From the NCBI GenBank assembly GCA_964432115.1, contig CAYSMC010000033.1:1123-65122 (forward strand): 64,000 nucleotides of DNA. Direction: 5' to 3'. The notes under the pieces were generated by a model. That model did not search any database. It saw nothing but the letters and a program-made list of their open reading frames with translations, and was not told where the DNA came from. This document shows positions 8,531 through 61,817 of this stretch, piece after piece (the first letter of the stretch is position 1; each line of letters begins with the position of its first letter). The translations under genes and the position numbers were made by a program. Source of the DNA: an uncultured Pseudomonadales bacterium (lineage in GTDB: Bacteria; Patescibacteriota; Microgenomatia; UBA1400; PJMF01).

Positions 8531-8585
8531 GCTATTTTCATTCTTGAGCTTTGTGAGAGACTAACTTATATTGCAATATCTGAGT

Positions 8586-9914
8586 ATGTCAAAAAAGAAA
8601 TCCATTTTTATTGTTGTCGTTATTTTTTCTTTAGTTGTGGGTTTGACTGTGGGCCTGTTAATCAGTCATTATCGTGAGCAAATTCCCTTTATTAAAAATT
8701 TAATCAATAAACAATCAGTTAATGAGGAGAGCGAAAACACTTATTTAGCTTTTTTACAAGAGATTCGAGAAATAATTTTTGAAAATTATTGGGACAAAAT
8801 AAATGAGGCTCAATTTATTAAATTACATGTTTTAGCTATTGAAAAACTAACTGGAACTACTTTGGGTGATGGAATAGAAAATTATGAAGATTTAGACCAA
8901 AAAATTCTTGATCTATTAAATGAATATCAAGAAGAAGAGCTTAAACAAGATTTTACTGCCCAATTAGCAGATCTGGTTTTGACTAATTTAGAACCTTTTG
9001 GTCGGAGCCGACTTTATTCTCAGCAACTTGAGCAAGAATTAGTTGAGCGCGTAAGCAATATTGATCCTGAAGCTGATCATTACCAAGCTTTAGGTGTAGA
9101 AAAGAATGCATCGAGCGAAGAGATTAATCAGGCTTATGAGGAACAGCAGGAGATTTTGATAGAAGATGATGGTGAGGAGGCTCGAGCCAAACTAGCAGTC
9201 ATCCAACAAGCTCATAAAACTTTAGCTGATGAAGCTAATAGAAATCGTTATGATGAGGCAGGAGTTAATCCGACCATGGAGTGGCGTTTATTAAGTCCCG
9301 AAGTTTTCTATTTACATATAAAACAATTTTCTCCAAATACTGTTCAAGAACTTTTAGAGGTAACACAAAAAGTCGATGATCGGAGTGAAGAATTAGATTC
9401 TCTAATTTTAGATTTGAGAGCCAATGTTGGTGGGGCTATTGATGGTTTGCCATATTTTTTGGGTCCGTTTATAGGTCCAAACCAATATGCCTATCAATTT
9501 CTTCAACAGGGAGAGATTACTGATTACAAAACACGTAGTGACTGGTTGCCTTCTCTCATGCGCTATAAAAAAGTAGCAGTCCTAATTGACGATCAAGTGC
9601 AATCGACCGCAGAGGTAATGGCCAGTGTTTTAAAAAAATACAATGTCGGGGTATTGATCGGCAGCACTACTATGGGTTGGGGTACTGTAGAACGAGTGTT
9701 TCCTATCGAAAGGCAAATTAGTGACAGCAAACAATATTCGGTTTTTCTAGTGCATCATTTAACTTTACGTGAAGATGGGGTGGTAATTGAAGGTAATGGA
9801 GTTAATCCCATGATTAATGTTAAAGACGTTGGTTGGCAAAGACAGTTGGAGAGATATTTTGGTGATTCAGCTATTGTGCCGGCAATTATGGAACAATTTG
9901 CCGTTCAGGAATAA
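8586..9914 (+). CDS. S41-family C-terminal processing peptidase (Ctp/Tsp-like) with an embedded J-like domain
   Basis: N-terminal TM anchor. S41 motifs LILDLRANVGG and AEVMASVL...GSTTMGWGT. Residues around DHYQALGVEKNASSEEINQAYEE...RYDEAG align to the DnaJ J-domain but have IED where the HPD motif should be. Confidence 0.65.
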   Translation: MSKKKSIFIVVVIFSLVVGLTVGLLISHYREQIPFIKNLINKQSVNEESENTYLAFLQEIREIIFENYWDKINEAQFIKLHVLAIEKLTGTTLGDGIENYEDLDQKILDLLNEYQEEELKQDFTAQLADLVLTNLEPFGRSRLYSQQLEQELVERVSNIDPEADHYQALGVEKNASSEEINQAYEEQQEILIEDDGEEARAKLAVIQQAHKTLADEANRNRYDEAGVNPTMEWRLLSPEVFYLHIKQFSPNTVQELLEVTQKVDDRSEELDSLILDLRANVGGAIDGLPYFLGPFIGPNQYAYQFLQQGEITDYKTRSDWLPSLMRYKKVAVLIDDQVQSTAEVMASVLKKYNVGVLIGSTTMGWGTVERVFPIERQISDSKQYSVFLVHHLTLREDGVVIEGNGVNPMINVKDVGWQRQLERYFGDSAIVPAIMEQFAVQE

Positions 9915-31599: not shown

Positions 31600-32807
31600 G
31601 TGTCTGATTTTACAGAACCGCTAGCTTCAATTTTGCGCCCCAAGAATTTAGATGAATTTGTTGGTCAAAATCATTTGGTGGGTCAAGGTAAACCTCTAAG
31701 CGCCATGATTGCTTTGGGCGCACCTTTTTCTTTAATTTTTTGGGGACCTCCTGGAGTTGGTAAAACCACTTTGGCTAAAATTATTGCTAGGGAAACGGGT
31801 CGTTCATTTATCGAATTATCTGCTGTTTCTGCCAGCAAAGCTGATGTTAAAAAAGTGCTGGATCAAACAAGAGAACAAAAGACTTTATTAGAATCTTACC
31901 AAGCACCAGTTCTTTTTTTAGATGAGATTCATCGCTTTAATAAAGCTCAACAAGATTTTTTATTGCCCAGTGTGGAAAGTGGCCAAATAGTATTAATTGG
32001 TGCCACCACGGAGAATCCGTCCTTTGAAGTGATTGCTCCTTTATTATCCAGAATGAGAGTGTTTGTTTTACATCCCCTCAAAAATGAAGAACTAGTTTTA
32101 ATCATTGATAAAGCACTCAAACTTTTAAAAATAAAAAAAATTGCCAAGTCAAGTCAAGAGTTTTTATTAAACTATGCCGATGGTGATGCTCGTAAATTAT
32201 TAACCATCATCGATAATGCTTACGCTCTTTATGGGGATTTAAAATTAACTTCACTAAAAAATGCTTTGCAGTCTAAGCAAATTCTTTACGATAAAAAAGG
32301 CGACGAACACTACAACATTATTAGTGCTTTTATTAAAAGCTTACGAGCTAGCGATGTCGATGCAGCCTTATATTATTTAGCCAGAATGGTCAAGGCTGGA
32401 GAAGATCCTAAATTTATTGCCAGGAGAATGGTGATTTTTGCTAGTGAAGACGTGGGTATGGCTCAACCAACAGCTTTGGTAGTGGCTAATGAAGTGTTCG
32501 AAGCAGTGATGAAAATTGGTTATCCAGAAGCCCAAATTAGTTTGGCTCACGGCGTGGTTTATTTAGCTTTAGCTAAAAAGATCGCAGTGCTTATGATGCT
32601 TATTTCAAAGCGCTGGCAGATGTAGAAAAATATGGCAATTTGTCCATCCCGTTTAAATTGCGCAATGCGCCCACAAAATTAATGAAAAATTTAAAATATG
32701 GTGAAGGCTATGTTATGTATAAACCAGGAAAAGATCAAAGAGAAGAAAGTTATTTACCCGATAAAATTAAAGGAAAAAGATATTATCAAAGTAAATCGAA
32801 AGGTTAA
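31600..32807 (+). pseudogene. rarA: replication-associated recombination protein A (RarA/MgsA AAA+ ATPase), disrupted by a 1-nt frameshift in a poly-A tract near 32575-32580
   Basis: Frame 1 (31600..32625) gives the AAA+ domain (FWGPPGVGKTTLAKIIA...AHGVVYLALAKK). Continuing in the 0 frame gives the conserved C-terminus ([45 protein letters not shown]...[12 protein letters not shown]) to TAA at 32805-32807. Adding one A to the AAAAA run restores one ORF. Confidence 0.7.
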
Positions 32808-32808
32808 A

Positions 32809-33546
32809 ATGTCTGATCAAAATTTACAAAATTGTTGTTTAAACTGTCAATGCCAGGTTTGTAAGCATTCTGCTGGTAATGGTGCGAATAGCGTTTCAAG
32901 CTTTCCCCTAATTGGTGATAAGTTTCCTGATTTAGAAGCTCATAGCACTCATGGTCGTTTATCTTTCCCCAAAGATTTAATGGGCAAATGGACAGTGTTG
33001 TTTAGTCATCCAGCAGATTTTACTCCGGTCTGTACCACTGAATTTGTATCTTTTGCTAAATACGCTCCCCAATTTAAAAAAATTAATACTCAGCTAATAG
33101 GTCTATCAATTGATCAAGTTTTTTCTCACATTAAATGGGTGGAATGGATCCAGGAAAATTTAGATATTAAGATTCCCTTTCCTATCATTTCAGATAATAC
33201 TGGTCGAGTGGGCAAGCGCCTCGGCATGATTCATGAAAAACAAGGGACAGATACAGTGCGAGCAGTATTTGTGATGGACGACAAAGCAGTTATTCGTTTG
33301 ATTCTCTATTATCCTCAAGAAGTGGGACGCAACATGGCAGAAATTTTGCGGGCAGTTAAGGCCCTGCAGTTTTCCACCGCTAATAAAGTAGCGATGCCGG
33401 CCAACTGGCCTGAAAACGAATTGGTAGGTGATCATGTTATTGTGCCACCAGCTAAGACTGAAGTTGAGGCCAAAGCCAGAGCGGGTAAAAGAGATTGTTA
33501 TGATTGGTGGTTTTGTCATAAAAAGGTAGTAGCCAAGAAAAAATAA
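32809..33546 (+). CDS. 1-Cys peroxiredoxin (Prx6-like) with a Cys-rich N-terminal extension
   Basis: Peroxidatic motif FTPVCTTE in a thioredoxin fold. The roughly 30-aa N-terminal tag is [23 protein letters not shown]. The start is chosen right after the rarA stop; the upstream start at 32698 would overlap the rarA C-terminus. Confidence 0.85.
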
Positions 33547-33595: not shown

Positions 33596-33669
33596 GCGCC
33601 CATAGCTCAGCTGGATAGAGCGTTTGTTTGCGGAACAAAAGGCCAGAGGTTCGAATCCCCTTGGGCGCA
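33596..33669 (+). tRNA. tRNA-Arg, anticodon loop reads UU-GCG-GA (anticodon GCG)
   Basis: Hand-folded cloverleaf: acceptor GCGCCCA/TGGGCGC, D-arm GCTC/GAGC with A20, anticodon stem TTTGT/ACAAA, T-arm with TTCGAAT loop, discriminator A73, and no encoded CCA. Confidence 0.7.
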
Positions 33670-33758
33670 CAGTTTATTTCATAATTTGCTAATTTAGTTT
33701 CAACTATGTAATTTTTAATAAAATGGTTTTTTTAATTAAGCTGGGTTAAAATAGACAA

Positions 33759-33956
33759 ATGACACCCAGAGAACATAATGATTCTTTTTTAGCTGGTCTT
33801 TTACGAAAAAAAGCCGCAGTAGAAGAAATAGAAAATGAAACTGGAGCTAATGTAAATTCAGCCCTTAAGGAAGTTGATCGGCAAATTAGTCAGTGCTTAT
33901 CTGGTGGTAACCCGATTAAAGGTAAAGGAGTGACTAAATCTGGAGAGTTAGATTAA
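33759..33956 (+). CDS. hypothetical small protein (65 aa) between two tRNA genes
   Basis: ORF only, with no homology recognised. It may be spurious. Confidence 0.25.
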   Translation: MTPREHNDSFLAGLLRKKAAVEEIENETGANVNSALKEVDRQISQCLSGGNPIKGKGVTKSGELD

Positions 33957-33961
33957 AGCTA

Positions 33962-34045
33962 GGAAGGGTCGCATAGTGGCTATTGCATCAGCCTCGAAAA
34001 CTGACGCCTTTTTGGGCATCGCGGGTTCGAGTCCCGCCCCTTCCG
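33962..34045 (+). tRNA. tRNA-Ser (anticodon CGA), type II with long variable arm
   Basis: Acceptor GGAAGGG/CCCTTCC, 3-bp D-stem, anticodon loop CT-CGA-AA, long variable arm, T-loop TTCGAGT, and G73. Confidence 0.7.
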
Positions 34046-34055
34046 CTCTAACTTT

Positions 34056-60057: not shown

Positions 60058-60339
60058 ATGGGGTATAATAAAAATATGGATTTTGCAAAAAAGAAACTTA
60101 GTTTAACTAGTGAAGATAAAACAATTACCCAACTCAAACGCATTCGTGGTCAAGTTGACGGTTTGATTCGGATGTATCAAAACGAAAGATCTTGTGTCGA
60201 AATAGCGCACCAAATCACAGCAGCTCGCAATTCGCTGTCGCGAGTTGCTCGCGATGTCTTGACTAACGCCGCTAATCACTGTATTAAAGAAAAAGATCAA
60301 AGCCAATTAAATTCAATTTTAAAAGAATTATTAAAGTAA
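60058..60339 (+). CDS. CsoR/RcnR/FrmR-family (DUF156) metal- or thiol-sensing transcriptional repressor
   Basis: LKRIRGQVDGLIRMY...CVEIAHQITAARNSLSRVARDVLTNAANHCI follows the CsoR-family helix bundle with the conserved Cys (RSCVE) and His/Cys (NHC) sensing positions. Confidence 0.7.
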   Translation: MGYNKNMDFAKKKLSLTSEDKTITQLKRIRGQVDGLIRMYQNERSCVEIAHQITAARNSLSRVARDVLTNAANHCIKEKDQSQLNSILKELLK

Positions 60340-60360
60340 TAAATAGATAGAAAGGTGTCT

Positions 60361-60699
60361 ATGCCAGCACAACATTTAGATAGTAGTAATTTTCAAGCCA
60401 CGCTAGACAGCGCGTCAACACCAGTTTTAGTTGATTTTTTTGCAGAATGGTGTGGCCCGTGTCAGATGGCTGCGCCAATAATTGATAAATTGGCCGATGA
60501 TTACAAAGATAAAATGATTATTGCTAAACTTAATGTCGATGAAGCACAGGATGTGGCAATGCAATTTAACGTGATGAATATTCCTACTGTTATTGTTCTC
60601 AAGAAAGACGATGATGGTAAAATGGTGGAGTTTGATCGCAAAATTGGTTTCCCAGGAGAAAGTGGTTACCAAAAAATGATTGATGAAGCGCTTGCTTAG
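60361..60699 (+). CDS. trxA: thioredoxin
   Basis: WCGPCQ active site in a thioredoxin fold. ATG with RBS AAAGG upstream. Confidence 0.85.
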   Translation: MPAQHLDSSNFQATLDSASTPVLVDFFAEWCGPCQMAAPIIDKLADDYKDKMIIAKLNVDEAQDVAMQFNVMNIPTVIVLKKDDDGKMVEFDRKIGFPGESGYQKMIDEALA

Positions 60700-60740: not shown

Positions 60741-61817
60741 ATGCAAAATTTAACAGTGGCTATTATTGGTTCAGGACCAGCCGGTCTGACAGCAGGAATT
60801 TATTTGGGTCGAGCTTTATTAAAACCCACCTTGTTTAGTGGCTTGAATATTGGTGGTCAGTTAATGTTTACTCGCGATGTTGAAAATTTTCCTGGTTTTC
60901 CAGATGGAATGCGTGGTCCAGAATTTATGATGAATTTAAAAAAACAAGCAACTAAATTTGATACAGAAATTCATCATGAGCAAATCACGGCCGTGGATTT
61001 TAATCAAGAACCTTTTCGCTTGTGGACTTCTTTACCAAACAACATGGAGTTTAAGGATCTACAAGATTTATCAAAGCAAGAACTGTTAAAAGTCACTGAA
61101 TTAATTAAAAAAAATCAGGAAGCAGATTATAGTGCTCGTAGTGTATTGATTACTACTGGAGCTGAACACATTAAACTTGCTGTTCCTGGAGAAAAAGAAT
61201 TTTTGGGTAAGGGTGTGGGTTTTTGTGCGGTTTGTGATGGAGCTTTTTATCGAAATAAAAAAGTATTTGTAGTGGGTGGAGGTGATACTGCTTTGGGTGA
61301 TGCCTTAGTGTTGAGTAAATTCACCGACCAAGTATTTATTATTCATCGTCGAGATCAATTTCGTGCTAGTAAAATTTTGCAAAAGCAAGTTTTAGCTGAT
61401 GAAAAATTTAAAATTTTATGGAATACAGAAGTTAAAGAGATAATTGGTGATAAACAGCGAATTACTGCTTTAAAACTTGCGCGAGAAGGAAAAGAGGAAA
61501 AAGTTGTTGCTGATGGAATATTTGTTGCTATTGGTTATAATCCCAACAGCACTTTGTTTACAAATCAGCTAAAAATGGATGATCATGCTTATATTATGAC
61601 TAGGCAATTTGGTAGTGAAATAGCTGTCAAGGAATTAATTCAAGACCATGAAGAAAGTTCAGCTAATTATTTTCCAACAATGACTTCGGTGCCTGGGGTA
61701 TTTGCCGCGGGTGATATAACCGATAGTCGTTATCATCAGGCAATAGTTGCAGCGGGTTCTGGAGCAATGGCTGCTATCGACGTTGAACGCTGGTTGGAAA
61801 TGATCAATGACGGTTAA
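60741..61817 (+). CDS. trxB: thioredoxin-disulfide reductase (with a roughly 35-aa lineage-specific insert)
   Basis: FAD motif IIGSGPAGLTAGIY, redox-active CAVC, NADPH motif VVGGGDTALGDA, and C-terminal FAAGDITD. Confidence 0.85.
   Translation: MQNLTVAIIGSGPAGLTAGIYLGRALLKPTLFSGLNIGGQLMFTRDVENFPGFPDGMRGPEFMMNLKKQATKFDTEIHHEQITAVDFNQEPFRLWTSLPNNMEFKDLQDLSKQELLKVTELIKKNQEADYSARSVLITTGAEHIKLAVPGEKEFLGKGVGFCAVCDGAFYRNKKVFVVGGGDTALGDALVLSKFTDQVFIIHRRDQFRASKILQKQVLADEKFKILWNTEVKEIIGDKQRITALKLAREGKEEKVVADGIFVAIGYNPNSTLFTNQLKMDDHAYIMTRQFGSEIAVKELIQDHEESSANYFPTMTSVPGVFAAGDITDSRYHQAIVAAGSGAMAAIDVERWLEMINDG

Follow-up and report, generated by a model that had tools for sequence, protein, structure and literature searches.

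The 64,000-nucleotide stretch of contig CAYSMC010000033.1 analyzed here (hereafter, the window) encodes a peroxiredoxin with a cysteine-rich N-terminal tail. Its open reading frame (ORF) spans 32809..33546 on the + strand, starts at an ATG, and encodes 245 amino acids followed by a stop codon. The enzyme core is ordinary; what is new is the tail, a hypervariable, recurrent, thiolate-rich extension of which we found no description for bacterial or archaeal peroxiredoxins. Our leading but tentative explanation, to which we give slightly less than an even chance, is that the tail is an accessory, metallothionein-like module whose thiolate clusters take up soft metals (Zn and/or Cu(I)) at or inside the pore of the peroxiredoxin ring, that its capacity is tuned by repeats, and that it is not needed for the thioredoxin-dependent catalytic cycle.

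The peroxiredoxin core and its cysteines

The gene comprises the following features:
32798..32803, + strand: Shine-Dalgarno sequence GAAAGG, 5 nt ahead of the ATG (read from the sequence)
32809..32901, + strand: Cys-rich N-terminal tail, residues 1-31 (translation; disorder in the AlphaFold2 model; blank in Pfam)
32833..32868, + strand: core thiolate cluster of the tail, C9-C10-x2-C13-x-C15-x2-C18-x-H20 (alignment to tagged relatives, that is, to homologues carrying such a tail)
32902..33543, + strand: residues 32-245, the peroxiredoxin core with its thioredoxin fold and C-terminal arm (Pfam, NCBIfam, and PDB matches)
33031..33033, + strand: codon of the peroxidatic Cys75 in FTPVCTTE (invariant column, aligned to the peroxidatic Cys, Cp, of solved homologues)
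33496..33516, + strand: candidate resolving pair C230-x5-C236 in CYDWWFC (alignment to ApTPx and PhPrx)

Directly after the 31-residue tail, the sequence FPLIGDKFP marks the start of the core. Residues 35-164 match the Pfam family AhpC-TSA with 105.9 bits (E 1.8e-30; cut-off 26), residues 185-225 match 1-cysPrx_C with 42.5 bits (cut-off 21.1), and residues 30-240 match the NCBIfam model PRK13189 with 339.8 bits (cut-off 211). The best solved homologues are SiPrx of Sulfolobus (6q5v), PhPrx of Pyrococcus (3w6g), and ApTPx of Aeropyrum (2cv4), with E-values of 1e-85 to 1e-78; these closest solved homologues form decameric (toroidal) rings. All three start 3-5 residues ahead of the PLIGxKFP strand, leaving residues 1 to ~29 of the query unmatched. 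In an alignment of 42 homologues, T72, C75, and R151 are invariant: the catalytic Thr-x-x-Cys(p) of Prx6 proteins is present within PVCTTE, as is the Arg, and C75 lines up with Cp in the solved structures. An AlphaFold2 monomer model built from this alignment has a predicted local distance difference test (pLDDT) score above 90 for most of the core. The protein had originally been predicted to be Prx6-like, and this assignment holds: judged by its sequence, with profile scores above their cut-offs and the catalytic residues kept, it is a member of the Prx6 subfamily.

The cysteines of the protein lie at positions 9, 10, 13, 15, 18, 75, 230, and 236, and His20 is next to the N-terminal cluster. 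The original prediction described a tag of about 30 residues with five Cys, absent from canonical relatives, and we confirmed both its coordinates and its content. Over the 53 long ORFs of the window (19,429 residues), Cys accounts for 0.80% of the residues; the expectation for 10-residue stretches with at least five Cys is 1.5e-4, and the peroxiredoxin ORF alone has one. The cluster is not due to chance.

The same original prediction labeled the protein a 1-Cys peroxiredoxin, a class lacking a second conserved Cys, and here it did not hold up. C230 and C236 align with C207/C213 of ApTPx and C205/C211 of PhPrx; among the 42 family members, tagged or untagged, C236 is invariant and C230 is found in at least 90%. 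SiPrx, a true 1-Cys homologue, has no Cys at these positions. The protein carries the three-Cys arrangement of the ApTPx/PhPrx type (Cp plus C-x5-C in xDWWFC) in the CYDWWFC of residues 230-236, and its sequence makes a strict mechanistic 1-Cys label doubtful. The resemblance to ApTPx, PhPrx, and TkPrx of Thermococcus covers the core from end to end, including DFTPVCTTE, the C-terminal arm, and CxDWWFC (E 1e-78 to 1e-79 for 2cv4 and 3w6g). The window protein differs from them in being bacterial (Patescibacteria) and mesophilic and in carrying a Cys-rich extension ahead of the core. ApTPx depends on all three of its Cys for activity, and NADPH, thioredoxin reductase, and thioredoxin together reduce its C50-C213 disulfide (PMC7465337). 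The window encodes both of these proteins:
60355-60699, + strand: trxA, with WCGPC (Pfam Thioredoxin, 92.1 bits)
60741-61817, + strand: trxB (Pfam Pyr_redox_2, 141.2 bits)

By analogy with ApTPx, TrxA and TrxB are probably the external reductant system of the peroxiredoxin. They had been described as a CsoR-regulated operon. The regulator upstream of them (60058-60339) is of the CsoR family (Pfam CsoR, 70.9 bits; C46 and C75), but the ligand His of the copper sensor is missing. The copper fingerprint of CsoR consists of x-C-H-C Cu(I) ligands, with a His four residues before the second Cys. At this site the window protein reads NAANHC, compared with RHANHC in Geobacillus CsoR (4m1p), and thus has Ala, not the ligand His, four residues before C75. 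Its best solved matches, 7mq1-3, which represent a persulfide-sensing CstR, likewise lack that His. The regulator therefore looks, by its sequence, like a thiol- or persulfide-sensing (CstR-like) protein and not a copper sensor.

At the other end of the peroxiredoxin, CYDWWFC is followed by a Lys-rich C-terminal tail (HKKVVAKKK, 33517-33543), found in the tagged clade and in some untagged relatives; other Lys-rich endings among the homologues are ...KKK and ...KKKKKV.

Translation, distribution, and evolution of the tail

The original prediction named two ways in which the tag could prove spurious, namely that homologues start at a downstream Met or that the region is only the 3' end of rarA, and proposed checking whether the upstream start is conserved in relatives. 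Neither objection applies, and the start is conserved. The rarA frame stops at 32805-32807, so that the tag lies wholly downstream of it. No in-frame ATG, GTG, or TTG occurs between 32809 and Met58, which is inside the fold. The ATG is kept at all orthologous loci, and GAAAGG is found 5-7 nt before it in every one, both tagged (L001-L006 and L081) and untagged (L007). The Cys-rich block is open and in frame, with no stops, at 19 DNA loci from independent genome or metagenome assemblies, and ~21 tag alleles keep the frame; one tagged protein (P0004) has the identical sequence on at least 23 contigs. At aligned Cys columns of the tagged relatives, TGT and TGC switch synonymously. With a single possible start, a conserved GAAAGG, and a frame kept across the 19 loci, the tail is very likely translated.

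We considered and rejected several other interpretations of the region. A longer start at ATG 32698 (282 aa, within the 3' end of rarA) is contradicted by the relatives, in which stops lie 3-28 codons ahead of the conserved ATG and no alternative start exists. We dismissed a signal peptide or lipoprotein for want of a hydrophobic stretch, and a precursor of a ribosomally synthesized and post-translationally modified peptide or an attenuation leader because the tail is fused in frame to the enzyme at every locus. A scan for promoters and terminators around the gene returned counts equal to those of shuffled controls.

The closest homologues come from metagenome-assembled genomes of Candidatus Woesebacteria and "Paceibacterota" (the GC content of the window is 35%). 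A Cys-rich N-terminus was present in 11 of the 120 best database homologues, and these were exactly the closest 11; the remaining 109 had either no extension or a short Cys-free one. Loci L001-L006 are tagged as well, and, in the near-homologue set, proteins at ~68% identity to the window protein or lower are untagged. In a neighbor-joining tree of the core, the tagged proteins form one clade, within which the untagged P0005 and P0009/L007 are nested, and the sister sequences are untagged. This topology indicates a single gain of the tail and at least two losses in a Patescibacteria (Woesebacteria-like) clade.

Tagged and untagged loci share the gene order typA-rarA-prx-(phosphoesterase)-patatin and are thus positional orthologues; across them, TypA is 85-90% and RarA 90-94% identical. 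The number of Cys per tail varies considerably against this background: 5 in the window, 0 to 14 over genome loci, and 7 to 16 inside one 90%-identity cluster. Part of this variation takes the form of copy-number polymorphism within the coding Cys cluster. The copy number of a 15-nt in-frame tandem unit, TGTCAGTGCCAAGGT (encoding CQCQG), is 1.6, 2.6, or 3.6 in genes that come from different samples and are nearly identical otherwise (L081, 6031-6084; also L004, L088/L089/L092, and L091), and repetition of a 12-nt unit generates the array of CxxxC in L005. No tandem repeat is present in the window allele, and the CC-x2-C-x-C-x2-C pattern is kept all the same.

Similar additions were found on more distant proteins. 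A second homologue search, with a profile of the N-terminal 78 residues, returned mostly truncated proteins, along with two further Cys-tag alleles and Met/His-rich N-terminal extensions on archaeal members of the same family. The latter, mostly truncated metagenome fragments, include P0181 (MCQMEMPMKKHMGEMGMGHMGMHHAGMMHHMG), P0146, P0199, P0183, P0149, P0185, P0204, and L120/L121 (~1300-1500). By their composition, these tails are incapable of thiol exchange. They resemble Met/His motifs that bind copper (PMC9117721). The one genomic context examined, that of P0199 (L085), contained the housekeeping genes DUF2098, DUF2117, and ADP-PFK, and no metal genes.

An exhaustive profile search against 1.84 billion representatives further revealed Cys-rich N-terminal tails on distant, true 1-Cys Prx6 proteins (41-46% identity) without the C-terminal Cys pair. 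These include P0272 (also P0401) of Methanomassiliicoccaceae, with the tail MSKDKCCEDSECCWDVPS; P0255 (also P0389) of Bacteroidales, with the stretch ...ECELCNCKCYCYEDCKCDD and an ambiguous start codon; and the P0264 cluster, with the tail MHEHDKKCHCDCIK. For the Bacteroidales protein, the NCBI start at a downstream Met (225 aa) omits a 31-residue, 7-Cys stretch that is included in other gene calls (256 aa). On the sequence evidence, Cys-rich tails arose independently in Methanomassiliicoccaceae and probably did so in Bacteroidales. The carriers that we found, counting Entamoeba (see below) together with Patescibacteria, Methanomassiliicoccaceae, and Bacteroidales, are all anaerobes or microaerophiles. 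Other N-terminal additions on Prx6-type proteins (P0382, P0241, and P0369) are a ubiquitin fusion (MQIFVKTLTGK...LRLRGG), a 65-residue Lys/Glu-rich extension, and a 69-residue Lys-rich extension; judging from these sequences, the N-terminus of the family evidently tolerates many add-ons.

Proposed metal binding and its alternatives

Across 17 alleles, the tail consists of 22% Cys, followed by Ser, Asn, Gln, Asp, Ala, and Lys, with only two aromatic residues in total. The gaps between successive Cys are short (CC 18, CxC 38, CxxC 24, CxxxC 14, and Cx4C 3), and 94 of the 97 span three residues or fewer. Relative to the window proteome, Cys is enriched 28-fold in the tags; this excess (22% vs 0.8%), together with the synonymous changes in Cys codons, argues for selection for Cys. 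The core pattern of the tags is [C/S]C-x2-C-x-C-x2-C-x-C, in which C18 is invariant among tagged relatives; at position 20, at least 90% of them have Cys and the window protein has His. His also stands beside Cys in other alleles (CHDKHC, CNCHDG, and NCHCQSC). The exchange of Cys for His and the pairing of the two suggest that ligand chemistry, and not disulfide chemistry, is conserved.

CC and CxC are poor disulfide formers and classic thiolate-cluster motifs. They are also the hallmark of metallothioneins, a class defined operationally by a high Cys content in CC/CxC/CxxC and few aromatics, and the tail agrees with this definition while belonging to no curated metallothionein family. Like SmtA/BmtA and MymT, it is short, with ~20-30% Cys in CC, CxC, and CxxC, few aromatics, occasional His, disorder in the metal-free state, and repeat expansion. 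Unlike them, it is not free-standing and has no Pfam metallothionein match, and its metal binding is predicted from composition. Apo-metallothioneins are disordered, as is also stated in PMC13578184. In the AlphaFold2 model, residues 1-30 have pLDDT below 50 and no secondary structure. The structure prediction proposed originally for judging Zn or Fe-S ligation thus recovered a disordered tail and is uninformative on ligation geometry. A zinc ribbon was rejected, as the tags have no paired, spaced CxxC knuckles.

Taken together, these observations lead us to favor a metal-thiolate tail. Under this explanation, the core would be an archaeal-type (ApTPx/PhPrx-like), thioredoxin-dependent peroxiredoxin with a self-sufficient cycle formed by the Cp C75, the pair C230/C236, and TrxA/TrxB. 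A Patescibacteria (Woesebacteria-like) lineage would have grafted onto its N-terminus a translated, disordered, metallothionein-like module, most likely one whose thiolate clusters hold Zn(II) and/or Cu(I). With 10-12 tails per ring, at least 50 thiols would face the lumen for the window allele, and up to ~160 for the longest alleles, forming, next to the peroxidase sites, a thiolate depot that buffers metal and is probably sensitive to peroxide. In-frame expansion and contraction of tandem repeats would tune its capacity quickly, and loss of the module would leave the enzyme working. What the sequences show directly is the gene, its start codon, its conservation and hypervariability, the composition of the tail, and a complete set of catalytic Cys; that the tail is translated, that it binds metal and which one, that the subunits assemble into a ring, and that the tails point into its lumen is inferred. 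The range of 0-16 Cys among positional orthologues with 90-94% identical RarA is easier to reconcile with a role in capacity than with a positional, catalytic one. We also counted in favor of metal binding the Met/His tails, which are incapable of thiol chemistry and occur on the same family, and the recurrence of Cys-rich tails on distant Prx6 proteins.

Several known systems offer parallels. The 29-kDa peroxiredoxin of Entamoeba histolytica (EhPrx/Eh29, P19476) forms rings, comes from an anaerobic/microaerophilic host, and has an N-terminal extension packed with Cys (residues 4-28, NQQKECCKK..QEKECCKECCCPRI; PMC5493030). This Cys-rich region is described as a probable contributor to activity (PMC4009108), and the density seen by cryo-electron microscopy at the center of the decamer may be the Cys-rich residues 1-23 (PMC13532219). 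Unlike the window protein, EhPrx is a eukaryotic, Prx1/typical 2-Cys enzyme, and its tail is rich in Lys and Glu, has CC/CCC runs, and is partly helical (C24-E39). A PDB sequence search with the EhPrx sequence returned only Prx1/2 homologues (human Prx1/2 best) and no EhPrx chain. Since the EhPrx core is of the Prx1/2 type and the window core of the Prx6 type, the two proteins do not descend as one unit of extension and core; by sequence, the two tails are a case of independent origin and convergence and have composition alone in common.

Engineered ring peroxiredoxins with N-terminal poly-His (SmPrxI and human PrxIII) similarly carry a metal-binding peptide at the N-terminus and ring pore. 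These His tags bind Ni2+ and metal nanoparticles and alter ring stacking in a manner dependent on tag length (PMC8023583). They differ from the window tail in being artificial, in using His and not Cys, and in sitting on Prx1-type rings. In mTXNPx of Leishmania, the N-termini line the interior of the ring (PMC6368585). We counted these placements, with the central density of EhPrx, as geometric precedents in favor of lumenal, metal-binding tails. Apart from the Entamoeba enzyme, which is the closest precedent, the nearest item in the literature is a 2026 report of a thioredoxin-metallothionein chimera presented as natural, TrxA of Runella. By the figures given there, its thioredoxin half shares 96% identity with enterobacterial TrxA and its metallothionein half 98% with Synechococcus SmtA (PMC13578184), which leads us to suspect a contaminating expression construct and not a native gene. 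No paper on Cys-rich tails of bacterial or archaeal peroxiredoxins turned up in our full-text literature searches, and the public annotation of the tagged proteins is plain "peroxiredoxin".

A number of points weigh against the metal-binding explanation. Lumenal N-termini are documented for Prx1-type rings only, and their position in Prx6-type rings is by analogy. We saw no metal-homeostasis genes beside the gene or in the annotated half (approximately) of the window ORFs, and, since its ligand His is replaced by Ala, the regulator of trxA-trxB gives no link to copper. The habitats suggested by isolate names (anaerobic digesters and sludge) are sulfidic, and free thiophilic metals should be scarce in them. 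Close relatives have shed the tail at the same locus, so that any benefit it brings is conditional. The term "metallothionein-like" describes composition alone: Pfam assigned no family, at E up to 10, to five isolated Cys-rich tags and one Met/His-rich tail, and a tag-only profile search (alignment A3) of a 5.8-billion-protein collection gave four word-sharing candidates and no match, although its word index is probably unsuited to low-complexity queries. Finally, the core tree is a neighbor-joining tree without bootstrap support, and for all of these proteins the case for metal binding is built from sequence.

The strongest rival, which we regard as possible but rather unlikely, is a metal-free, redox-active thiol tail, acting as a local sacrificial or relay pool that peroxide or the sulfenic acid of Cp oxidizes, as the origin of disulfides between subunits that lock or stack rings, or as a chaperone switch. 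It includes the built-in resolving or relay thiol suggested originally, alongside metal binding, as a role for the tag. That the fusion partner is a thiol peroxidase speaks for this rival, as do the anaerobic or microaerophilic carriers, for which additional thiol buffering could pay off, and the fact that Cys-rich and Met-rich tails both consist of oxidizable sulfur residues. Entamoeba species differ in the length of the N-terminal extension, reportedly in step with catalytic efficiency (PMC13532219), and peroxiredoxin N-termini of Leishmania serve in binding chaperone clients (PMC6368585). However, with C230/C236 conserved and trxA/trxB in the window, a built-in resolving thiol is not needed, and the tail-less orthologues at the same locus show the tail to be dispensable for the catalytic cycle. 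A relay needs a fixed geometry, yet close orthologues have 0 to 16 Cys, and such hypervariability in number and position argues against precise relay. The dominant CC/CxC spacings are unfavorable for disulfides, and neither the His that replaces Cys at a conserved column nor the many His of the Met/His tails fits disulfide chemistry. Of the two roles suggested originally for the tag, the evidence thus favors metal binding and does not support the resolving or relay thiol.

A bolder version of the metal-thiolate explanation, which we consider unlikely as a whole, is that the tails of all subunits meet in the ring lumen and together form a multinuclear cluster of thiolates with Zn(II) or Cu(I), open to oxidation by the adjacent peroxidase sites, and that the ring thereby serves as a metal depot gated by peroxide or as a redox switch. 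It would be akin to Hsp33 or to a metallothionein from which oxidants release the metal. The Cys cluster of Hsp33 holds Zn when reduced and lets it go upon oxidation by peroxide, coupling oxidant sensing to a change of function. Hsp33 differs in having a fixed CxC...CxxC four-Cys domain that is not hypervariable and has no sequence relationship to the window tail. In this scheme, oxidative stress would lead to metal release and/or a changed assembly or chaperone state, repeat expansion and contraction would set the capacity at the population level, and anaerobes of three domains (Patescibacteria, Methanomassiliicoccaceae, and Entamoeba) would have reached the same solution independently.

Less likely still is a neutral, low-complexity insertion, made and resized by slippage and tolerated at an exposed N-terminus, or one that affects expression only (through the initiation context or the pacing of Cys codons). 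The hypervariable length, the tandem 15-nt and 12-nt repeats, the predicted disorder with no recognizable domain, and at least two clean losses among close orthologues all agree with such an origin. The 28-fold Cys enrichment has nonetheless been kept, with synonymous Cys-codon changes, in a clade whose cores diverge down to ~68% identity; the repeat-free window allele retains CC-x2-C-x-C-x2-C; distant Prx6 proteins and the Prx1 of Entamoeba each acquired Cys-rich tails of their own; and free surface thiols are normally costly and purged if useless.

The weakest candidate is an iron site, either an Fe-S cluster or a rubredoxin-like Fe(Cys)4, possibly bridging subunits and serving as an O2/H2O2 sensor or electron entry point: the anaerobic hosts, a Cys density sufficient for cluster ligation, and the Cys-Pro pairs and CxxC of several alleles (such as CCPDCPCQDCQC and CPEQCPSQC) would suit it, but we judge it highly improbable, as no allele has a canonical CxxCxxC...CP or paired CxxC...CxxC knuckles, ligand number and spacing are not conserved, the low-complexity, repeat-driven evolution is unlike that of known Fe-S sites, exposed Fe beside a peroxide-binding site invites Fenton chemistry, and peroxiredoxin chemistry has no need for a one-electron carrier.

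If the tails do bind metal, they would define a natural peroxiredoxin-metallothionein fusion, tie peroxide defense to metal buffering in minimal-genome organisms without glutathione, and provide a tractable bacterial model for a 35-year-old puzzle, the role of the Cys-rich region of Entamoeba. Peroxiredoxins belong to the most intensively studied antioxidant enzymes, and their rings serve as a nanotechnology scaffold by means of N-terminal metal-binding tags. Our findings suggest that nature has taken this step several times, with the hypervariable tail in bacteria of the candidate phyla radiation, Cys-rich tails in Methanomassiliicoccaceae and probably Bacteroidales, Met/His-rich tails in other archaea, and the long-known Cys-rich N-terminus of the Entamoeba enzyme. 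The tails are also relevant to annotation: at least one public record, the Bacteroidales protein described above (225 aa vs 256 aa), trims such a tail through the choice of a downstream Met.

Neighboring features of the window

Upstream of the peroxiredoxin gene, rarA/mgsA (31600-32807) is split. The ORF at 31600..32625 covers positions 2-82 of MgsA_C, and positions 100-153 lie in another frame, at 32640..32807. The change of frame occurs near 32585-32640, close to an A-run (gctaaaaagatc), and the relatives have an intact 408-aa RarA; the split reflects a homopolymer error in the sequencing or else a gene that recently became a pseudogene.

Downstream, a 65-aa ORF without a family match (33759-33956) lies between tRNA-Arg(GCG) (33596-33670) and tRNA-Ser(CGA) (33962-34046) and may not be a gene. 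Elsewhere in the window, a 447-aa ORF (8571-9911) combines a J-domain-like region (DnaJ model, residues ~168-233) with an S41 C-terminal-processing peptidase (residues ~215-425), an unusual pairing.

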